A stretch of 24,000 bases of DNA from Pseudogulbenkiania sp. MAI-1. Its GTDB lineage: Bacteria > Pseudomonadota > Gammaproteobacteria > Burkholderiales > Chromobacteriaceae. Position numbers and translations under genes: made by a program. Numbering within the stretch: the stretch's first letter is position 1; each line of letters starts with the position of its first letter. Where the stretch lies: positions 2,408,913 through 2,432,912 of the forward strand of contig NZ_AZUR01000001.1 in NCBI RefSeq assembly GCF_000527175.1. Direction: 5' to 3'. Shown piece by piece: positions 4,994 to 21,558 of this stretch. Under the pieces are notes generated by a model, which had not been told where the DNA came from, made no database searches, and worked only from the letters and a program-made list of their open reading frames with translations.

Positions 4994-7900
4994 TCAGCCT
5001 CCCATACTCATCAGGCTGGCATTTCCTCCCGCGGCCGTGGTATTTACGCTAACGGCACGTTCCACCACCAACCGGTGCAGATTGATGTCGTCCGAGTCGG
5101 CCGCCAGCAGCTGGATCAGCGCCCCGTCGCGCGCGGCCAGACGGCGCTGCAGCTGATCCGCTGCATCCGCCTTGCCGGCAAACAGCACGCCAGCGACATC
5201 GGCTTCCACTACATCACGGCTCAGCTCGACGTAACCATTCAGCTTCCCGGCCAGCTTGCGCGTGCTCTCACTCTCCTCCAGCACCGCGCGGTTGCCGGTG
5301 GCGAACACCGCGATCAACTGCCGCAGCAGGCCTTCGGTCGACGACGCCACGCAGCCGATCTTGCCACGCGGCGCAAACAGCAGCGAGTTGTTCTCGCCGG
5401 TCGGCCCCGGCAGCTCCACCCCATGCGCCAGTGGCGTGTGCCGGCTCGCCTCGCCCAGTGCCTGACGCAGGCGAGACTGGGTCGACGCATCCAACCCGAA
5501 TCCACCCAGCTCGGCGTCGAGCTTCTGCAGCGCCGGCAATTTGGCCGACTGCGGGGTCAGCTTCAGCGCCGGCTGCCACTTGGCGCGGGTCAGGCGGTAC
5601 AGGTAGAACGGACCGCCGGCCTTAGGTCCGGTGCCGGACTTGCCCTCGCCGCCGAACGGCTGCACCCCGACCACGGCGCCGACGATGTTGCGGTTGACGT
5701 AGACGTTGCCCACCTTGATGCGCGACACGATGCGCTCGATGGTCTCGTCGATACGGCTGTGGATGCCGTGGGTCAGGCCATAGCCGGTGCTATTGATCTC
5801 GTCCACCACGCGGTCGATGTCGGATGCCTCGAAACGCAGCACGTGCAGCACCGGGCCGAACACCTCGCGGGTCAGATCCTTCAGGCTGTCGATCTCGAAC
5901 ATGGTCGGCGGCACGAAGGTGCCCTGGCCGGCGTTTTCGGGCAGCTTGGCCTGATAGGTCCAGCGCGCCCGCGCCTTCATCTTGTCGATATGCGCCAGCA
6001 GATTCTGCTGCGCCTCGGCGTCGATCACCGGTCCGACGTCGGTGGTGAGCTGAGCCGGATTGCCCACGGTCAGCTCATCCATCGCCCCCTTGATCATGCG
6101 GATCACCTTGTCGGCGATGTCGCTCTGCAGGTAGAGCACGCGCAGCGCCGAGCAGCGCTGGCCGGCCGAATCGAAGGCCGAGGACAGCACATCGGCCACC
6201 ACCTGTTCCGGCAGCGCCGAGCTGTCGACGATCATCGCGTTCTGGCCACCGGTCTCCGCCACCAGCGGCACCTCGCCACCGCGCTGCGCCAGCGTACGGT
6301 GGATGATCTGCGCCACTTCGGTCGATCCGGTGAAGATCACGCCCTGGATACGCGGATCGCGCGTCAGCGCGGCGCCGACCACTTCGCCGCGGCCCGGCAG
6401 CAATTGCAGCACGTCGCGCGGCACACCGGCCTCGTGGAACAGGCGCACGGCAAAAGCGGCAATCAGGCTGGTCTGCTCGGCCGGCTTGGCCAGTACCGGG
6501 TTACCGGCGGCCAGGGAGGCACTCACCTCGCCGGTGAAGATCGCCAGCGGGAAGTTCCACGGGCTGATGCACACCACCGGCCCCAGCGGCGCATGGCTGG
6601 CATTGTCAAACTCGGCACGGATCTGCGCGGCGTAATAGCGGCAGAAATCGACCGCCTCGCGCACTTCGGCGATAGCGTTGGTCAAGGTCTTGCCGGCCTC
6701 GCGCACCGCCAGGCCCATCAGCGCCGGCATATTGTCTTCCATCAGCGTCGCCATGCGCTCGAGGCAGGCGGCGCGCTCGGCCACCGGCGTTTCAGCCCAG
6801 CGTGCCGCGGCGCTTTCCGCCAGATCCAGCGCACGCGCCACATCGGCCTCGGTCGCTTCATACACCTGACCGACGATATCGTTGCGGTCGGCCGGATTGC
6901 GCACTGGCTGCGGTTCGGCCGTGGTCACCTCGCCGTCGCCCAGCAGCGGGCAGGTCTGCCAGTACTGCTTTTCAGATTCCATCAGCCCCAGTTGCAGGGT
7001 CGCGAGCACCTGCTCGTTGGACAGGTCCAGGCCACGCGAATTGGCGCGCTCGGCACCGTACAGCTCCAGCGGCAGCGGAATCTTGGCGTGCGGCTGGCCG
7101 CCGTGACGCGCGGCCTCCGCCACCGGATCCTGCACCAGTTCGTCGATCGACACCGATTCATCGACGATACGGTTGACGAAGGACGAGTTGGCGCCGTTCT
7201 CCAGCAGACGGCGCACCAGGTAGGCCAGCAGCGTTTCGTGCGAGCCGACCGGTGCGTAGATACGGCAGGCCCGGCCCAGGTTGGCCGAACCGACCACCTG
7301 GTCGTACAAGGTCTCGCCCATGCCGTGCAGGCACTGGAACTCGTAATCCTTGTCGCCGGCCAGCGTGTGAATGGCCGACAGGCTGTAAGCATTGTGCGTG
7401 GCGAACTGCGGATAGATCGCGTCCTGGGCCGACAGCAGCTTCTTGGCGCATGCCAGGTAGGACACGTCGGTGTACACCTTGCGCGTGTACACCGGGTAGC
7501 CCGGCAAGCCATCCACCTGGGCACGCTTGATCTCGGCGTCCCAGTAGGCACCCTTCACCAGACGCACCATGAAACGATGCTTGGTGCGGCGCGCCAGATC
7601 GATCAGGAAGTCGATCACGTAAGGACAGCGCTTCTGGTAGGCCTGTACCACGATGCCGATACCTTCGAAACCAGCCAGGTCCGGATCGTTGGCCAAGGCC
7701 TCGACCAGGTCCATCGAGATTTCCAGGCGGTCAGCCTCCTCGGCATCGATGTTCAAACCGATATTGTATTCTTTGGCCAGCAGGAACAGCTGCTTCAGGC
7801 GCGGCAGCAGCTCGCCCATCATGCGCTCATGCTTGGCACGGGCGTAGCGCGGATGGATGGCGGACAGCTTCACCGAGATGCCCGGCCCCTGGTAGACGCC

Positions 7901-13933: not shown

Positions 13934-15235
13934 ATGGTTGATGTTTACGACGATCCCGTTCAGATGGAGCCGCTCGTCATCGACGACTCCCGCCCCGTCT
14001 TCAAAGACCTGCATGGGCTCGCTCACGAGCTGTCAGAGGTGTCCGCGTGCCTCGACGCGGCGGTCATTCCTTCGACGGCAAAAAGCCTCTCTGAACTCGT
14101 CGAGGGCCTGAACTGCTACTACAGCAACCTCATTGAAGGCCACATAACGCTCCCCATCGACATCGACCAGGCATTGCACGAGGTCACGGAGAAGGCGGAC
14201 AGGAAGAATTTGCAGAGCCTTGCGCTGGCTCACATCGAAGCGGATCGCTGGGGCAAACAGCAGTCTCTCGGCAAAGAAACACTCAAGTCATTTCTACTCA
14301 ACGTCCATCGAACATTTTGCCAGCACCTCCCCGCAGAGCTCTTGCAGCTCGACGACGGCGCCATCATGACGCCTGGCGAGTTCCGCACTTGGGAGGTGCA
14401 GGTGGGACGGCACCTCGCGCCCAAAGCCGAGACCCTTGGAAGCTTCATGGACCGGTATCAACAGGTCTATGGGCAACGACTTGATTGGGCCAAGAAGGGG
14501 GGTCTACCAAAGCTCACCAGCATGGTATCGACGTTCGCCGCACACCACCGGCTAGCCTGGATTCACCCTTTCCTGGATGGGAATGGCCGCGTCGCACGGA
14601 GCACCCTGGACGCGATGCTCCGGGCGTGCGGAGTCAGTGGCGCCAGTTTGTGGTCGATGTCCCGCGGGCTGGCGAAGACCTCGGACCAGTACAAGGCTTA
14701 CCTGGCCGGTGCCGACGAAGCTCGACATGGCGCTCTGGATGGGCGAGGCAATCTGACCGAAAAGGGGCTGGCCGAGTTCTTCCGATACGGCATGCAAACC
14801 GCGATTGACCAGGCGAACTACATGGCGTCGATGTTCTCCCTGGAAAACTTCCAGGCTCGCGCATCGGGATACTTTCGTAAGGTCCGGTACACCGACATGA
14901 AGCCAGAAGCCGCCCACTTGTATCTGCATGCGTTCGTGATGGGCGAGTTTGAGCGTGGTGAAGCCAGCCGGATTACCGGCCTAGCCGAAAGAACAGCACG
15001 ATCCGTACTGAGCGACCTCATCGGCGAGGGTTTCCTGGTGTCTGACTCGCCCAAAGGCAAGGTTCGGGTTGGATTTCCGATCCATGCCCTCGGCTCGCTG
15101 CTCCCGAACCTCTACCCCGCCGGCGATGTCGACATCACACCGGAACAGCTTGCCGAGATTCGTCACCGCAAGAAAATCGCAACGAGCAGACCGGCATCGT
15201 TTCGGCAACACATCGACAACAAGACCGAGTCCTGA
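13934..15235 (+). CDS. Fic family protein (class II, with intramolecular inhibitory helix), C-terminal wHTH-like region
   Basis: Canonical Fic active-site motif HPFLDGNGRVAR (HxFx[D/E]GNGRxxR). The N-terminal inhibitory motif [S/T]xxxE[G/N] is present as SNLIEG in YYSNLIEGHITL. Confidence 0.9.
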   Translation: MVDVYDDPVQMEPLVIDDSRPVFKDLHGLAHELSEVSACLDAAVIPSTAKSLSELVEGLNCYYSNLIEGHITLPIDIDQALHEVTEKADRKNLQSLALAHIEADRWGKQQSLGKETLKSFLLNVHRTFCQHLPAELLQLDDGAIMTPGEFRTWEVQVGRHLAPKAETLGSFMDRYQQVYGQRLDWAKKGGLPKLTSMVSTFAAHHRLAWIHPFLDGNGRVARSTLDAMLRACGVSGASLWSMSRGLAKTSDQYKAYLAGADEARHGALDGRGNLTEKGLAEFFRYGMQTAIDQANYMASMFSLENFQARASGYFRKVRYTDMKPEAAHLYLHAFVMGEFERGEASRITGLAERTARSVLSDLIGEGFLVSDSPKGKVRVGFPIHALGSLLPNLYPAGDVDITPEQLAEIRHRKKIATSRPASFRQHIDNKTES

Positions 15236-16253
15236 TCACCCCGGAAACCTGGTCACTTTTGCACGCTGTTCTACATACCGGGCGTCGGTGCGAACCATAA
15301 TACGCGGTTGTGATGTAAATTCTAGAGTGGCCGAGTTCTTCTGAGACCTTGTATCTAACCCTTTTCTCTAAGTCCGCAGGTATCTCATCTTTGACCCCAC
15401 CCCGCACTGGGGTTTTGTATCCCCCGCTAAGTTCTTCGAACCTGTTATTAGCATATTCATGGCGTAGACCATGAGGAGTTACTCCCAATTCCGCCTTGGT
15501 GACCCCATGCTTTTCCAGAACATGACGGAAGTGACGGAGGTTTTGCTTCAAGGTTTTGTTTCGGATACCGATGTGGTTGTCACCATTCCCAGCCAGTTCC
15601 TTCGCCTTTTTCAAAACCGCACGCTGGCTTTCCGTCTCCACGGGGACAAACCTGATACGACCTCCTTTAGTCCCCCGTTTCAGCATCAAGCTTTTGCCGT
15701 CGATACTGATAGAGTCGTTGGGCTTGAACATGGCAGCCTCTTTAACCCTAAGTCCAAATTCGCGAAGCAATTCGAGTTGAATCGCGACTCGTTTATCCTC
15801 TTTCTCGATTCTCTGCAACAGTTCCTCAGGATCAATACTGCTCGCTGACCAACTTTTGTCTGTTTCAGCCCGATAAACCCGCTTAATCGATTCCGGATTG
15901 CTCACAAGGTCACATAAGGGAGGAATTGTTCCAGGTTTATCGACCCAAACAAGAAACGTACCAAGAACTGAGTGCCGAGTTTGTAGGGTGGATGGACTAA
16001 GACCCTGATTTTCCCAGTGTTTAAAGAGAGCCTCTATGTGCCTTTGTCGTAAATTGCGAACACTTTGTAGCTTGTAGCCAAGTTCTCTCAGCTGACGGAA
16101 CGACTGGAACAGGATATCTGCCCTCTTCTTGATCGTTGCCATACTGACAACCTTATCTTTTCTGGCATGGCCATGGGCATTGGCGTGTATGAGTTGATTC
16201 AACTCCTTCTGCCAATCGCCCGGCCTTATATCATATGTGTGAGTGCTGCTCAT
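15135..16253 (-). CDS. Tyrosine recombinase / integrase with an abnormal ~51-aa C-terminal read-through tail
   Basis: Catalytic set present: R (FGLRVKEA), K (TKGGRIR), HxxR (HGLRHEY), H (LGHSRIY) and Y (TTAYYG). The N-terminal region resembles the phage-integrase N-terminal domain family. ATG 16253 is preferred over TTG 16265. After YYGS (15291-15302) the frame continues through the antisense of the fic 3' end to 15135. Confidence 0.85.
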   Translation of the reverse strand: MSSTHTYDIRPGDWQKELNQLIHANAHGHARKDKVVSMATIKKRADILFQSFRQLRELGYKLQSVRNLRQRHIEALFKHWENQGLSPSTLQTRHSVLGTFLVWVDKPGTIPPLCDLVSNPESIKRVYRAETDKSWSASSIDPEELLQRIEKEDKRVAIQLELLREFGLRVKEAAMFKPNDSISIDGKSLMLKRGTKGGRIRFVPVETESQRAVLKKAKELAGNGDNHIGIRNKTLKQNLRHFRHVLEKHGVTKAELGVTPHGLRHEYANNRFEELSGGYKTPVRGGVKDEIPADLEKRVRYKVSEELGHSRIYITTAYYGSHRRPVCRTACKSDQVSGVIRTRSCCRCVAETMPVCSLRFSCGDESRQAVPV

Positions 16254-16440
16254 TTTGTCACCCAACCCATGTCAGTTAATTTCATATTTTTATTCATCAC
16301 CTGCTGCGGCCAGCAGGGCCCTGCGTCCTTAAAAAAATTCGTCCGGCTTTCCAGGCCCCCTCAATTTGAGGGCCAGCTTGCGCTGGGGCAGATACCCCAT
16401 TTATCGACCGGCATCAAGTCTCGACCTCGCCAATAATGGC
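15291..16440. mobile_element. AT-richer integrase-bearing segment (boundaries approximate)
   Basis: Base composition drops visibly relative to fic on the left and the ABC-3C genes on the right. It carries only the recombinase, and both neighbouring genes show junction damage (read-through tail on the left, truncated ATPase on the right). Confidence 0.35.
16358..16372. repeat. 15-bp palindrome CCCTCAA-T-TTGAGGG upstream of the integrase
   Basis: Perfect 7-bp arms around one central base, about 105 nt upstream of the integrase ATG. A second hairpin CCTGCTG-cggc-CAGCAGG lies at 16300-16317. Either could be a recombinase or regulator binding site. Confidence 0.4.
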
Positions 16441-16662: not shown

Positions 16663-16938
16663 TCACAAAGGAGCACGGCGGCCTGGTACCAGCGTGTTGG
16701 CGACGAACACCTGCTCGTGTGGAAACTGGAACGTGACCCCGAACCAGGATACCTTCTCGCGGATGAAGCCCTCCGCAATTTTGCACTCATCCTCTCCCAT
16801 GCAGTACTCGACGATGTCCGAGAGGGACGACTTACCCGTTGAGGCTAGGCCGGTGATGATGTTCAGCCCATCGGGATTCAGGGTGAGGTCGCGCCTACGG
16901 CCGTCGTGGCTGTAGATATGAATAGAAGCAATCTTCAT
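16663..16938 (-). pseudogene. Truncated N-terminal fragment of a DUF3732-like ABC-3C ABC ATPase
   Basis: MKIASIHIYSHDGRRRDLTLNPDGLNIITGLASTGKSSLSDIVEYCMGE...WFGVTFQF matches the N-terminal strand-Walker A region (GxxxxGKS) of SMC/ABC-type ATPases of the three-component family. The frame ends after 91 codons. No Q-loop, signature or Walker B follows in any frame before the integrase segment. Confidence 0.6.
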
Positions 16939-17423
16939 GGGCGGATGGACAAACTGGTGTAGACCGTCACGCGGTCGTTAATCTGGGCGAAATCGCGGCC
17001 GAGGACGACTGCAGCGGCGCGGCATCTTTCGGCGTCTTCGGTGTTCAGCGGCTGGGGTGACACGCGCCTAGGTATGAGGCTAATGCATCCGCCATCATTC
17101 ACTCTGATACAGCCCTTGCTTGCTAGCAGTGCGAAGGCCTCTGTGGCGTACTGGACAAGCGCCCGAGCCCGTTCAGCGAAGTCGACCAGCAAGTCCGGGC
17201 GCAGTGCGAAGACCCGCAGCACCGACCGCCGCTTGTTCTCCAGAATCTCCTCACGTGAGGCCTGGTGTAGGCACATCGGCAGCACAAGCAGCGTCAAGGA
17301 GTACGGCATTGGCTTCCTGGCAATACGCTCGTACTCACGGATGGCCGCGGCCAAGACCACCGCGCAAAACGCAGGGTTGAAGAGGTTCCGCTCTTCAAAC
17401 GGGCGAGATGACCAGTTCCTCAT
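16935..17423 (-). CDS. ABC-three-component (ABC-3C) system middle component
   Basis: 162 aa. The N-terminus MRNWSSRPFEERNLFNPAFCAVVLAAAI...MPYSLTLLVLPMCLHQASRE follows the W..RP.E..NL.NPAF...(L/V)LP..LH pattern I recall for proteins annotated as three-component ABC system middle component. ATGA overlaps at both ends (17420-17423 and 16935-16938). Confidence 0.65.
   Translation of the reverse strand: MRNWSSRPFEERNLFNPAFCAVVLAAAIREYERIARKPMPYSLTLLVLPMCLHQASREEILENKRRSVLRVFALRPDLLVDFAERARALVQYATEAFALLASKGCIRVNDGGCISLIPRRVSPQPLNTEDAERCRAAAVVLGRDFAQINDRVTVYTSLSIRP
16967..16982. repeat. 16-bp exact direct repeat, copy 2 (TCACGCGGTCGTTAAT)
   Basis: Identical to 16540-16555. Lies inside the 3' end of the middle-component gene (codons INDRVT), 29 nt upstream of the ATPase-fragment ATG. 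Confidence 0.6.
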
Positions 17424-18613
17424 GCTGTCACCTTCGACGTGGCAGCCTTCAGGCGCTCAAGAAACTGCGGATGCCAGTGCACGCGCGGCATCGGCTTCTC
17501 GTCAGCGAGGATGTGGAAGCTGCCGCGGCGAACGAAGTCCTCCGTGACGTCCTTGCGGATTTGCAGGCCCTTGGACTGGTTCTCTGCCCAGTCATACAGC
17601 TGGCGGCCCGCAGCTTGGTACTCGGCCTCGTTCTGTGGCGCCTTCACCATGGCCCAGCCTTTGGCGCGCTTCCATTCTTCGACCAGGCGCAGCTCGAACT
17701 TGCGAATCTCGTCGCCGACAAGGGCGTTGACACGCGACCAATGTGCGCGTTGGGAGAACGCGCGGTAGAAGTCCAAGATTGCCATCTCCAAGCTGTCGCT
17801 GGACATGGCAATCGCCCGCAGCTGCTCGACGAACTGCCGGGTGTCTTTCATCGCGTCAATTCCCTCGTCAGGGTAGGCGTCGTCGAAGGTTATTGGCAGG
17901 CGCTCGTCGTAATACTCGCTGTTGACCTGCGCAAACTTCGCCCAGACCTCGGCGCCGGTAATGGGCTCGCGCTCGCCCTGGATGAGCTCTATAGCTTCCC
18001 TGAGCCACCACCCTTCCATGCGTTCACGGACATCAGTGCGGAACTTCGCAGCCACCGACCGCAGAAGCGGGGCGAAGGCGGCATCCAGCTCCATGATGCG
18101 CAGCGAACTATCGGCAATCACGATGCGGGCCAAGAAGTCGTCCTGCTGGGTCGCAGTCAACGAGCTGAACTTGTTTTCAATCTGCGCACTCAGCTGCGTC
18201 TTCGAGCCCTTGAGCTCGGTGACGAGCTGCTTTGCGAAGTCAGCTGGCTTGGCATCAGCACCGTAGAGGAAATACCGAAGCAGCGTGGTGGGACCGACGC
18301 GCGCCGTCGTTGCCATGCAATATGAGTGATCGCAGGCAAGGTTGCCATCGCGGATGTACCGGTCGAGCCAGATGCGGACCGACTTCCAAAAGTCGGTCGA
18401 CAGCGTGGCGACGGTCTCGCCGACCTTCTTGTGCTTCAGCGATATCAGCGTCTTTTTGCCGTCGACGTCGCGCAGTTCAACGTCGTCGTCGGCCTCTATG
18501 AGCAGTGCTTGGCTCTCGTCCTGCTTCATCAGGTGCGCCAGCGCGAAGCGAATCTGGTAGACGTAGCCGAGCCCCTGCTCCCCGGCGGCGTACTTGTCTG
18601 TTTGAGTTGCCAC
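17420..18613 (-). CDS. ABC-3C effector component: N-terminal PD-(D/E)xK dsDNA-nuclease-like (DUF4297/Cap4-type) domain plus an ABC-3C C-terminal domain
   Basis: The N-terminal region GLGYVYQIRFALAHL...LLIEADDDVELRD...LISLKHKK has the GF/YxYQ ... D-x-E ... K layout of Cap4-type nuclease domains. GGGAGGA SD lies 3-4 nt before GTG 18613, and the track start at 18706 is an alternative. Translationally coupled to the middle component. Confidence 0.7.
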   Translation of the reverse strand: MATQTDKYAAGEQGLGYVYQIRFALAHLMKQDESQALLIEADDDVELRDVDGKKTLISLKHKKVGETVATLSTDFWKSVRIWLDRYIRDGNLACDHSYCMATTARVGPTTLLRYFLYGADAKPADFAKQLVTELKGSKTQLSAQIENKFSSLTATQQDDFLARIVIADSSLRIMELDAAFAPLLRSVAAKFRTDVRERMEGWWLREAIELIQGEREPITGAEVWAKFAQVNSEYYDERLPITFDDAYPDEGIDAMKDTRQFVEQLRAIAMSSDSLEMAILDFYRAFSQRAHWSRVNALVGDEIRKFELRLVEEWKRAKGWAMVKAPQNEAEYQAAGRQLYDWAENQSKGLQIRKDVTEDFVRRGSFHILADEKPMPRVHWHPQFLERLKAATSKVTA

Positions 18614-18876
18614 TTGTCCTCCCTTGCTTACCCGCAGCCAATCACGGGCGCCTGATACCCATGTACGAAGCATTGCTGATACAGGTGACCAGAAGACTCC
18701 AGGCAATATCTACGAGAATTTATGGCATCTATACGTGGCGCAGCAATGACGTAGGGATTGTGCCAGCCACACTCTCGTTTGTCATCCTGTGAGTATCACT
18801 TGCCTACGGCTGCTTAGGATGCCAAATCACTCGCTGAAAAATCAGGTAAATTAACCCCGGACTCTAAAGCCCACTG

Positions 18877-19124
18877 CTACTGAGAATGGGGGGACGTCGC
18901 AGTCACCTTATCTTCAACGACCAGATGGGTGAGAAAGCTACTGACCTCCGCAGCCCCATGTCGCAGGGGTACCGATGATGGTGAAAGCGCAAAAAGCGCC
19001 GTACCCAATTGTTGACGTATTGCTGCTCGGTGCGCAGGCTGTAGTGCCTGACTCGCAGCGCCTCGCGCAGCACATGGCACAAGCGTGGCGCGGCAGTCCC
19101 ATTTAACTGTGTACTTTCAGGCAT
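18877..19124 (-). pseudogene. intI: Integron-integrase-like (IntI) N-terminal remnant, frameshifted and truncated
   Basis: From ATG 19124: MPESTQLNGTAAPRLCHVLREALRVRHYSLRTEQQYVNNWVRRFLRFHHHRYPCDMG. A -1/+1 shift then continues in another frame as AAEVSSFLTHLVVEDKVTATSPHSQ*. This parallels the IntI N-terminal SAM-like domain pattern R.RHYS.RTE.AYV.W..RF..FH..RHP..MG..EV..FL..LA....VS.STQNQA. None of the catalytic domain remains. Confidence 0.6.
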
Positions 19125-19269
19125 CAGCAACCCCAAAAGCTTGGGAAACAATGAAAATGCAATTACCATAACCAGTTGTACATACAGAAAAACCAAATAC
19201 CTGTATAGGTGCATATCTCATGTTGGGCGTCAGCAGTAAGCCAATTTACCACAGCAGAAGGTACTTAAA

Positions 19270-19683
19270 ATGTCTAAACAGCTTTCGTTAATAGATTATC
19301 CTAGCAGCGATGAAGGGGAAGTGTACGAGCCAGAAAATTCTGTAATCGCATCAGCTTTCATATCAAATGAAGTAATACACAACCTCGAAAGACTAGGGGT
19401 ATTTGAAAAATTTCGCCTTTATGAAGACTCGAGCTTGAGTGATTTTGTTGAACAAACCCGAATCAAGCAAGATATGATTGACAGTGCTTTAAGGGAGATT
19501 GAATCTGAATTTATTAGATTATTAGATTCAAAAGTGGTTAATGAAATAAAGAAAATTCAATCCAATGAATCTATTGATGCATTGATCTGTGAATTCAACG
19601 TAATAACAAACATATATCATATCTTGAGGCTGAAAAATAATAATTTTTCAAGCATCTCCTCCGCAATTATTAAATTGGGGTGA
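19270..19683 (+). CDS. Hypothetical acidic, predicted-helical protein (137 aa)
   Basis: AT-rich codon usage that is foreign to the rest of the window. GAAGG SD 9 nt upstream. The stop is 3 nt before the start of the next gene. I recognise no family. Confidence 0.6.
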   Translation: MSKQLSLIDYPSSDEGEVYEPENSVIASAFISNEVIHNLERLGVFEKFRLYEDSSLSDFVEQTRIKQDMIDSALREIESEFIRLLDSKVVNEIKKIQSNESIDALICEFNVITNIYHILRLKNNNFSSISSAIIKLG

Positions 19684-19686
19684 GCG

Positions 19687-20235
19687 ATGAGTGAAAATAT
19701 CGGAAAAGATGGAGAAATGCGCTTCGCAATCACGATTGCAGGGGCTTCTATCAGAGAGAATGGCCTCGACTTTACGCGCCACACGGTAACCAACCAGCCG
19801 GACCTTGGTGTCGATTACTCTGCAAAAGGCCCTGCGGAAGTACTGATTTCATTTTGTGAAATTGGCACAGGCACTGAACTTGGGGTCATTAGAGAAGCGT
19901 TTGGGCAGCCTGACCGTAAAATTGAGGCTAGGTTCGATATAAAAACGACTGAAGAAAAGTTAGCAGGAGACACTGTTGAGAAATTTGTTTCAGATGTAAA
20001 AAAACATCCGACCACTGACCTGCATGTTTTAGCTGGGGGTTCCGGTCTAACAAAATCAGCCCAAGCAAAGTTTGAAACGTATAGCGCAGCACTTCAAGAA
20101 GATGGGAAAGCACTCGTTTACATTCCTAATCAAGGGCTGGCAAAACTAGCATCCGAATATAAGCCAGAGATTCTTAGTGCGCTTGGTGGCCCGACAGGAA
20201 CGGACGAAAGCGGCCCTGGAAGCGAAAGCAAGTAA
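19687..20235 (+). CDS. Putative PD-(D/E)xK (Mrr-cat/restriction-endonuclease-like) nuclease (182 aa)
   Basis: Motif order typical of Mrr-like cores: GKDGE(10)MRFA, then QPD(39)LGVD(43)Y, then ARFD(84)IK(86)T, followed by the ...VxxFxxxV...(long-stretch)...GLTKSAQAKFE layout. Motif recognition by eye only. Confidence 0.5.
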   Translation: MSENIGKDGEMRFAITIAGASIRENGLDFTRHTVTNQPDLGVDYSAKGPAEVLISFCEIGTGTELGVIREAFGQPDRKIEARFDIKTTEEKLAGDTVEKFVSDVKKHPTTDLHVLAGGSGLTKSAQAKFETYSAALQEDGKALVYIPNQGLAKLASEYKPEILSALGGPTGTDESGPGSESK

Positions 20236-20260
20236 TTACGATGCACCTAAAAAATCGTTG

Positions 20261-20316
20261 CACCTGACAAGTTTGCCAGGCCCAGCTTTCAGCCGTTCCA
20301 GTCAAACTTGCAGGTG
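20261..20316. repeat. 56-nt imperfect inverted repeat just after the nuclease-like gene
   Basis: CACCTGaCAAGTTTG (20261-20275) pairs with CAAACTTGCAGGTG (20303-20316). That gives 14 paired bases with one extrahelical A (20267) and a 27-nt loop. No U-tract follows. Confidence 0.5.
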
Positions 20317-20445
20317 AGCTTTACGTTGGGCATTTTGAAAATGACTGCGGTCTCGATTTATCGCTTCAAAGATCGGTGGGTTTGAATCGCCCCTGATTTG
20401 CTAGTCGCCTAGGTGGCTGCTAACGTATCGGAAAGCAGCCATTCG

Positions 20446-20718
20446 TTATAGAAAGAACGAACATCCGCTTTGGCCGAATTGTGCGCGTAGCTTGCCCGTC
20501 AGGTTCTGGAACTGAGCAGTCGCTCGAATGACTGCTCTGTGAGACATGCGGTCGGCTGCAGTTGGCCGGTAGCACCAGTTTAGCCATACCTCCGGAAAGC
20601 GGCCATTGAGGTCGAGTAGGCCGCCGAATGCCTGCTTTCGGGTAAGCGTCCCCGAAGGCAGGCCACGGCCATAAGCGGCCTTATGCCACCCACAAGACAA
20701 CCAGTCATTTTGGTTCAC
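20446..20718 (-). CDS. Hypothetical protein (90 aa), doubtful
   Basis: GTG start without a clear SD, intermediate base composition, no recognisable motif. It contains an 8-bp-stem inverted repeat GAGCAGTC/GACTGCTC. Confidence 0.25.
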   Translation of the reverse strand: MNQNDWLSCGWHKAAYGRGLPSGTLTRKQAFGGLLDLNGRFPEVWLNWCYRPTAADRMSHRAVIRATAQFQNLTGKLRAQFGQSGCSFFL

Positions 20719-20772
20719 TTCAGGCCATTCAATAGCCGAATTCGAGACAGACTGTGCTTCGCTCCAATCAGG

Positions 20773-21558
20773 CTACAACTGCACGATCCGTTTGCGGAAC
20801 TCGTCTGGCGTCGCTCCCATCAACCGGTGGAACATCGCGATGAAAGCGGACGACGTGCTGTAGCCCAACTCCAGCGCCACCGTCTGCACGGTCAGCCCAT
20901 CCTCGAGCATCGAAAGCGCCCGCACCAGCCGCAACCGCTGTCGCCACTCCACGAACGACATGCCAAGGTCGCGCTGACAGCGCCGCGACAACGTGCGCTC
21001 GGTACTGTGCACCACACTTGCCCACGCCTCCAGCGGGCGATTGTCGCCCGGCTGCTGGCGCAGTGCCTCTAGCACCTGGCCCAGTGCCCGGTCTTCGGAG
21101 ATCGGCAGATAGGTATCCTGGCGTGGCGCCAGACTCATCTGGTCGACCAGCACCTGCATCAGCCGTTCGTCGTCGTTGCTACGCGGATAGTCTACCTGGC
21201 GCGCCACCAGGTCGGCCAGGATCGCCTTGCTGATGGGGCCGACCGCCAGCGTACACACTTCGGTGGGCAGCCTGCCGCAACGCTCTGACGCAATGTCCAA
21301 CACGCAATAGCAAGCCTCTGACCGCGTACTGGCCCCATGCTCCGTCTGCGGAGGCAGCCACAGACCGTAATGAGGTGGCGTCAGGTACTGGCGGCTTCCC
21401 ACGGTCAGTTCGATCACGCCACTGAACGAGAACACAAATTCTCCCCAGTTGTGGCGCTCCGTCGGGTAGGTCGTCACCTCGTTCAGCCGCATCGTCCGGA
21501 AAACCAGCGAATGCGGCAGGGACGTCCCGAACGGATACGAAATTTGAGCGCCAGGCAT
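20773..21558 (-). CDS. AraC-family transcriptional regulator (N-terminal cupin-like sensor, C-terminal double HTH)
   Basis: C-terminal AraC signature region LEAWASVVHSTERTLSRRCQRDLGMSFVEWRQRLRLVRALSMLEDG.TVQTVALELGYSTSSAFIAMFHRLMGATPDEF. Confidence 0.9.
   Translation of the reverse strand: MPGAQISYPFGTSLPHSLVFRTMRLNEVTTYPTERHNWGEFVFSFSGVIELTVGSRQYLTPPHYGLWLPPQTEHGASTRSEACYCVLDIASERCGRLPTEVCTLAVGPISKAILADLVARQVDYPRSNDDERLMQVLVDQMSLAPRQDTYLPISEDRALGQVLEALRQQPGDNRPLEAWASVVHSTERTLSRRCQRDLGMSFVEWRQRLRLVRALSMLEDGLTVQTVALELGYSTSSAFIAMFHRLMGATPDEFRKRIVQL

Follow-up and report, generated by a model that had tools for sequence, protein, structure and literature searches.

A two-gene integron cassette pairing an acidic protein with a PD-(D/E)xK nuclease-fold protein in Pseudogulbenkiania sp. 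MAI-1: a candidate toxin–antitoxin-like or anti-phage module

A 24,000-nt window (the whole stretch of DNA that was analysed) of contig NZ_AZUR01000001.1 from Pseudogulbenkiania sp. MAI-1 carries two tightly coupled open reading frames, ORF1 and ORF2, which an earlier note on this DNA had described as a foreign two-gene module of a small acidic helical protein and a Mrr-like nuclease candidate. The protein records listed in Table 1 are 100% identical to the two products, and both are annotated as hypothetical in MAI-1. The two ORFs were located as described, separated by only 3 nt (TGA-GCG-ATG), and ORF2 does have a Shine-Dalgarno-like stretch of its own, GGGGTGAG, within the 3′ end of ORF1; the last ORF1 codons, CTG GGG TGA, double as this stretch, and the junction is kept across the family. 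The base composition of both ORFs is foreign to the host genome, as claimed: by composition count, the GC content and the GC content at third codon positions (GC3) were 0.333 and 0.326 in ORF1 and 0.468 and 0.383 in ORF2, versus a GC content of 0.600 in the whole window and GC3 values of 0.67–0.80 in the neighbouring genes. Both are real genes under purifying selection, and the ratio of nonsynonymous to synonymous substitution (dN/dS) of 0.09–0.18, determined for both ORFs against their three closest copies, together with confident AlphaFold2 models of both products, argues against chance reading frames. As a separate observation, the GC contents of the two genes lie far apart even though they share one cassette (see below), and synonymous divergence (dS) from the Chromobacterium subtsugae copy was 0.95 for ORF1 and 0.37 for ORF2.

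ORF1 and ORF2 together constitute one 1.1-kb two-gene integron cassette, which is stranded in an integron remnant. The cassette boundaries were defined by aligning the window with the copies from C. subtsugae (L001) and Pectobacterium aroidearum (L002). On the 5′ side, similarity starts at GTTGGGC, GTTGGAC and GGTGGGC in the window, L001 and L002, respectively, with all three sequences unrelated further upstream; homology between the genomes is confined to the unit from G/TTGGGC, a core of the G/TTRRRY type, to the R′ box of attC, and the flanks are unrelated. The core GTTGGGC was found 48 nt 5′ of the ORF1 ATG in the window and likewise in L001, and a promoter scan detected no sigma-70-like promoter in this 48-nt leader, as is expected of an integron cassette. 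On the 3′ side, L001 and L002 have a canonical attC (GCCCAAC-AATTC-GTTCAAGC...GCTTAAC-TCAAAC-GTTAGAC) with which the window attC aligns. The latter exceeds it in length, its R″ box is degenerate (ACCTAAA versus GCCCAAC), and it retains the L″/L′ stem with its bulged base; folding of its bottom strand yielded a bulged hairpin of -20 kcal/mol (z = -3.1), and the inverted repeat I4 agrees with the attC call. Because the R″ box is degenerate, the window attC may no longer recombine, and the cassette is probably impaired in its own recombination site. Upstream of the cassette, the region ending in the core would serve as attI, judging from its position, and is preceded by a decayed integron integrase gene (ΔintI) that matched the NCBIfam integron integrase model NF011946 (E = 1.7e-10) over model positions 16–64 of 337 only. 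ΔintI keeps the first ~95 of ~320 codons, and three-frame translation revealed one frameshift and an in-frame stop (18877–18879); with its integrase gene truncated, frameshifted and stopped, the window integron is a remnant, and the core, the attC and ΔintI bear out the cassette position that had been assigned to the pair. No Rfam match was obtained across positions 18000–21500 of the window.

The cassette form is restricted to a part of the family. A second attC lies directly 5′ of the L001 copy, placing that pair in a cassette array; this upstream site was the only one picked up by a purpose-made attC scanner, which was very strict. An attC is absent from the L003, L010, L016, L017, L018 and L029 copies, and the L029 copy has its own promoter (TTGACC-N17-TATATT). 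In a methanotroph-like contig (L006, ENA contig_22238, 6582–7700), the pair sits precisely between rph (RNase PH) and a Ham1/rdgB gene, with a degenerate attC-like repeat, GCCTAAC-GAATC-GTTCCAGCGCACC...GGTGGCGCTGAAC, behind it; this copy resembles a cassette that stands by itself, with no integron around it.

ORF1 and ORF2 are an obligate and co-evolving pair. Wherever the upstream side was readable (about 20 independent loci), an ORF1 homologue was found 1–7 nt 5′ of the ORF2 homologue, and the adjacency was the same whether the loci had been found via ORF2 or independently via distant ORF1 homologues, with a 134–139-aa gene always followed by a 172–182-aa gene. The hosts include Chromobacterium, Pectobacterium, Paraburkholderia, Pseudomonas and Methylococcaceae as well as metagenomes, that is, Beta- and Gammaproteobacteria, so the co-occurrence in other genomes, which the earlier note had named in advance as a check, was found in every readable locus and on plasmids too. 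The pair resides on the 122-kb Pantoea agglomerans plasmid pSUH1_C (L018, 4595–5546), on a 6925-bp Col-type plasmid of Providencia rettgeri (CP145936.1; L019, 73–1016) and on an integrative and conjugative element (ICE). The two plasmid copies are the most divergent among the annotated record collections: their ORF2 is 32–36% identical to that of the window by tblastn, and their ORF1 is detectable by profile only (E = 9e-7 in L019 and 7e-12 in L018). Pairwise identities of ORF1 and ORF2 are correlated (r = 0.905, 15 pairs), and in 102 of 105 comparisons ORF1 has diverged further than ORF2.

Decay of the pair was observed on one side only. In Methylovulum psychrotolerans Sph1 (L017, 7791–8459), the ORF2 homologue is a pseudogene, with an insertion of ~50 codons that contains a stop within helix 1 and a separate nonsense codon, beside an intact ORF1; at a further locus (L027, 575–1103), ORF2 carries a 1-nt frameshift and ORF1 is again intact, and the truncated ORF2 product recurs in clusters P0024 and P0025 from different sources. 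A broken ORF1 beside an intact ORF2 was found in none of the examined loci. An apparent ORF1–ORF2 fusion and a read-through of the junction were both rejected. The 316-aa fusion protein P0079 is an artefact in which a TGA stop was called as Trp, since the DNA of its source (Logan contig ERR8057092_45130; L020, 69–1019) reads GGG-TGA-GTT-ATG, like that of the window. ORF1 and ORF2 of the window share a reading frame, but programmed TGA read-through was dismissed because family members differ in gap length (1–7 nt).

We conclude that ORF2 is a PD-(D/E)xK superfamily protein whose nearest resemblance is to Mrr_cat, although it falls short of PF04471 membership by the curated threshold. The restriction-endonuclease fold that had been proposed for it is reproduced by its AlphaFold2 model (predicted local distance difference test (pLDDT) 85.5, predicted template modelling score (pTM) 0.81), which displays the αβββαβ core in the order helix 5–24, strand 28–31, strand 41–49, two inserted helices, strand 78–86, helix 94–105 and strand 112–117, with the C-terminal ~15 residues disordered. 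The top PDB match by Foldseek was the restriction endonuclease EcoT38I (E = 1.1e-3, probability 1.00, query-normalised template modelling (TM) score 0.47), with RPB5 chains next in rank; RPB5 has a restriction-endonuclease-like fold in its N-terminal domain. A PDB sequence search with ORF2 gave nothing meaningful. The ordered acidic/lysine motif read from the sequence likewise held up in a 34-sequence alignment reaching down to 23% identity, where E10, G41, D43, R82 and K86 are invariant and R31, T35, D39 and D84 are conserved in at least 90% of the members. E10 on helix 1, D43 on strand 2, and D84 and K86 on strand 3 occupy the catalytic places of the superfamily and are the putative catalytic residues of a protein that is presumably a nuclease.

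The Mrr-like assignment was supported: Mrr_cat is the closest family, with matches that are sub-threshold throughout. Mrr_cat matches were obtained for seven of the 34 ORF2-family members (best E = 3e-4), and the single member inspected individually scored 18.7 bits against a gathering threshold of 21 bits; the other sub-threshold matches were to Mrr_cat_2 (three of 34), NA-iREase1 (one of 34, E = 2.6e-5) and PDDEXK_15 (one of 34). An hhalign comparison with Escherichia coli Mrr placed RIDVK opposite YVQAK and aligned the following helix and strand, at a weak E of 0.037. The pI of the window ORF2 is 4.96. The family is rare, as an HMMER search of 1.84 billion representative proteins returned just 61 ORF2 relatives at E < 1e-3; the 2311-aa P0123, which appeared as a large carrier of the ORF2 domain, is a repetitive DUF3011 protein that was matched spuriously.

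The description of ORF1 as a small acidic helical protein needs one correction; every other claim of the earlier note that could be checked was upheld. The protein is acidic (pI 4.68; 4.2–5.9 family-wide), and it is predicted not to be all-helical, since its AlphaFold2 model (pLDDT 93.5, pTM 0.85) is that of an α/β protein with a five-stranded sheet (strands 3–9, 24–31, 45–51, 59–65 and 132–136) and four helices (33–41, 67–85, 88–96 and 99–125). The family comprises 53 clusters, nearly all of 130–142 aa and without domain fusions. ORF1 has no detectable relatives of known function, in agreement with the lack of a recognised motif noted before: searches against Pfam, PHROGs, NCBIfam, PADLOC and PDB sequences gave noise only, among it one ORF1-family member matching a Colicin_Pyocin immunity model at the 0.1 level, and with Foldseek nothing informative came from the PDB (best E = 0.25), while the best BFVD match, to an uncharacterised phage protein, was poor (E = 9e-4, TM 0.35).

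Table 1. Coordinates of the gene pair, the integron elements and the neighbouring genes in the window
Feature	Position	Strand	Description
ORF1	19270–19683	+	137 aa; acidic (pI 4.68), predicted α/β protein; WP_156943126.1; proposed partner, inhibitor or sensor of ORF2
ORF2	19687–20235	+	182 aa; predicted minimal PD-(D/E)xK, Mrr_cat-like nuclease fold; WP_156943127.1
ΔintI	18859–19124	-	Decayed integron integrase; NCBIfam NF011946 and Pfam Phage_int_SAM_4
attI-like region	19125–19228	+	Ends in core GTTGGGC (19222–19228); cassette starts after G
attC	20245–20331	+	R″ ACCTAAA 20245–20251; L″ 20257–20275; L′ 20303–20316; R′ GTTGGGC 20325–20331
SoFic-like Fic gene	13934–15235		PADLOC E = 1.2e-25
Tyrosine recombinase ORF	15135–16265	convergent to Fic gene	In low-GC patch
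LmuB ATPase (ABC/SMC) remnant	16663–16938	-	91-aa N-terminal Walker-A stump with GLASTGKSS
MC3/LmuC	16935–17423	-	Intact
LmuA (Cap4-like nuclease + CTD7)	17420–18706	-	Intact; PADLOC LmuA E = 2e-55

The window cassette lies within a ~7.5-kb island of decayed mobile and defence genes (Table 1), in which the neighbours named by the earlier note, i.e. a Fic gene, recombinase genes and a decayed ABC-3C operon, were all recovered, the recombinase genes being the tyrosine recombinase and the integron-integrase fragment. The ABC-3C operon is a decayed Lamassu operon (16663–18706, minus strand) that retains LmuA and MC3 intact, and its LmuB stump abuts the low-GC segment with the tyrosine recombinase. 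The Fic gene and the tyrosine recombinase ORF overlap by ~100 nt (15135–15235), and GC falls to 0.48–0.50 across 15200–16400, a drop which suggests that this segment is a separate insertion that truncated LmuB. Downstream of the cassette, the interval between the attC and an AraC-family gene (20332–20772) contains a hairpin (GGTGGCTGCT...AGCAGCCA, at about 20410–20442), a 20-nt inverted repeat (20426–20445 / 20625–20644) and a direct repeat, CGGAAAGC(A/G)GCCATT; a 90-aa ORF on its minus strand (20446–20718) matched an ISCR transposase at noise level only (E = 0.024). This interval could be a second degenerate cassette or the scar of a mobile element.

At other loci, the pair is accompanied by the defence genes AbiEi/AbiEii, a GajA-like OLD/TOPRIM ATPase, Hhe, AbiJ, PDC-S04 and PDC-S37, and further by ParE, PemK and RelB toxin–antitoxin (TA) genes, Cas2, integrases and ICE conjugation genes. 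A distant copy (L029/L030, 1–5953; Ga0451660_000006 and Ga0451659_000010), with ORF1 32% and ORF2 40% identical to those of the window, has a complete Lamassu (LmuB_C, MC3 and Cap4+CTD7 LmuA) 2.2 kb away, of the subtype that is also present in the window; its LmuA is 30% identical to the window LmuA, and the divergent orientation is shared. This proximity could reflect coincidental clustering in defence islands or a real association.

The absence of a named system for the pair was upheld by searches against known systems. Neither window protein matched PADLOC-DB v2.0.0 (2023) at E <= 0.1, the 34 ORF2-family members gave just two noise-level matches (E ~0.009) against PADLOC v2, and nothing significant was obtained for ORF1 or ORF2 in Pfam, NCBIfam or PHROGs. 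The family is absent from 50,697 phage records and from the IMG/VR viral contigs, and a phage origin of the pair was discarded on these zero matches. The accessions of ORF1 and ORF2 are uncited in the searchable literature, and the two-gene cassettes in published integron papers differ from the pair in domain content.

TA modules and small Mrr_cat-type defence systems are known in integron cassettes (Darracq et al., bioRxiv 10.1101/2024.07.02.601686), and comparison with such systems delimits the pair from several sides. Mrr_cat is found in Type IV restriction enzymes and as an effector in Lamassu, in Avs/NLR-like systems and in the integron-cassette system Epona (bioRxiv 10.1101/2024.07.02.601686). 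ORF2 resembles Mrr_cat (PF04471) in its αβββαβ core, in a D-x-G-x-D loop before strand 2 and R-x-(D/Q)-x-K on strand 3, and in the post-motif helix and strand that align with E. coli Mrr, and resembles Epona in that its Mrr_cat-type domain is likewise borne by an integron cassette; it differs in that the window protein has no Pfam score and its seven scoring relatives all fall under the gathering threshold, in that its domain stands alone without a fused sensor, holin or DNA-binding domain, and in its dependence on a separately encoded partner. Sucellos (sclAB) and Toutatis (tutAB), from the Vibrio cholerae superintegron, are defence cassettes of two genes each (bioRxiv 10.1101/2024.07.02.601686), small and streamlined, whose two genes, like ORF1 and ORF2, are always together inside a single attC-bounded cassette; Sucellos, however, is RexAB-like and Toutatis combines a Hpy99I-like recognition domain with a methyltransferase, and the present pair is not known to have an anti-phage phenotype.

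The type II TA modules of integron cassettes (ParDE, HigBA, RelBE and Phd-Doc types) share with the pair two small coupled genes with the putative neutraliser first, an upstream partner that evolves faster than the downstream one, residence on plasmids and islands, and decay of the putative toxin gene with retention of its partner. Unlike them, ORF2 has a DNase fold and is not a mRNA interferase or gyrase poison, and ORF1 has no ribbon-helix-helix (RHH), helix-turn-helix (HTH) or AbrB domain or recognisable antitoxin fold. Nuclease–immunity pairs (colicin E DNase/Im; polymorphic-toxin Tox-REase/Imm) offer a further likeness in the small acidic protein encoded beside a DNase domain, with an acidity that is consistent through the ORF1 family and a presumed block by tight binding; here the differences are that ORF2 is a complete stand-alone cytoplasmic protein without a secretion or delivery domain, and that the gene order is reversed, with the partner ORF1 upstream.

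From this comparative evidence we infer a TA or defence role, and the module is probably of TA or anti-phage type and outside the searched PADLOC-DB v2 models. The interpretation that we favour, at a probability of about 0.5, is that the pair is a mobile integron cassette that works like a TA module, with a nuclease and a protein that keeps it in check. ORF2 would then be a minimal Mrr-type PD-(D/E)xK DNase serving as effector or toxin, ORF1 would be translated just before it from the same transcript, and the acidic ORF1 protein would bind ORF2 and keep it inactive, possibly also acting as a sensor. Upon loss or displacement of ORF1, ORF2 would be released, the DNA cut and the cell arrested; the release could be triggered by phage shut-off of host expression, by a phage-supplied trigger or by loss of the cassette or plasmid, and abortive infection or post-segregational killing would be the outcome. 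The scheme presumes that ORF2 has nuclease activity, that the two proteins form a physical complex, that ORF1 is inhibitory and that a phage or gene loss acts as the trigger.

Several observations weigh against this interpretation. The nuclease fold has modest backing from structure comparison (TM 0.47, E = 1e-3), Mrr_cat is not matched by ORF2 of the window itself (Pfam PF04471, E <= 0.1), and Q replaces D84 in one family member. The domains through which typical type II antitoxins autoregulate (HTH, RHH, AbrB or other) are missing from ORF1 and 43 relatives, and the decay asymmetry rests on two cases only. Moreover, the defence neighbours form a raw list of observed genes, and copies from the methanotroph clade are single insertions whose surroundings consist of housekeeping genes (rph/rdgB in L006, purK/cysS beside P0069, and nitrogenase genes) and not of defence genes.

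We also tentatively consider that the pair is an undescribed anti-phage system moved by integrons and plasmids, in which ORF1 would be the gatekeeper or sensor of a stand-alone Mrr-type nuclease and phage perturbation would lead to abortive infection. A pure addiction cassette of TA type with no anti-phage role, which would persist because its loss kills the cell and would stabilise integron arrays, plasmids and islands, appears unlikely. The 6.9-kb Col-type and 122-kb Pantoea plasmids, the lone insertions between housekeeping genes at rph/rdgB and purK/cysS, and the TA cassettes known in chromosomal integrons (bioRxiv 10.1101/2024.07.02.601686) all fit such a cassette, but bona fide defence genes repeatedly adjoin the pair, including two divergent copies beside Lamassu; furthermore, many TA modules also defend, so that addiction overlaps with the TA-like nuclease and keeper module and is not exclusive of it.

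The pair might be a two-subunit restriction-type nuclease, non-toxic to the host, in which ORF1 is the specificity or activating subunit, recognising e.g. modified or foreign DNA or a phage protein, and ORF2 the catalytic one, in the manner of a Type IV (Mrr-like) enzyme divided over two proteins. In E. coli Mrr and related enzymes an N-terminal recognition domain is indeed fused to a C-terminal Mrr_cat, and ORF2 (182 aa) stands alone and always partnered; no methyltransferase was found beside the pair in any examined locus, and the defence-island context would suit such an enzyme. We nevertheless regard it as doubtful, as the acidity of the ORF1 family (pI 4.2–5.9) is unusual for a DNA-recognition module, the best matches of ORF1 in the structure libraries are unrelated or uncharacterised proteins, and decay of ORF2 alone with ORF1 kept is more in keeping with a toxic effector than with a harmless enzyme. 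Very improbable is that ORF2 is inert, or a non-nuclease DNA-binding or scaffolding protein of PD-(D/E)xK fold, with the pair engaged in mobile-element housekeeping such as recombination or replication control: the best fit of one family member to the 'NACHT-associated inactive REase' model (E = 2.6e-5) and the acidity of the window ORF2 itself (pI 4.96) point that way, but retention of the acidic/lysine triad to ~23% identity is unexpected for an inactivated domain, and the pair shows no consistent association with recombinase or replication genes.

Integron cassettes are recognised reservoirs of compact defence and TA modules, and most cassettes have no assigned function. The ORF1–ORF2 pair is a module that is very small (1.1 kb) and rare, is conserved in several orders of Proteobacteria and has a recognisable effector domain; a nuclease effector with a cognate partner on a mobile cassette is of a known kind, and the partner here, ORF1, has no informative match in the PDB or BFVD. 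If ORF1 does gate a Mrr-type nuclease, the pair would extend the nuclease-effector toolkit by a new type of regulator and the defence/TA catalogue by a new entry, and as a gatekeeper or sensor ORF1 would define a new class of nuclease regulator; otherwise, the pair would still be a well-delimited two-gene cassette that moves between integrons, ICEs and plasmids.

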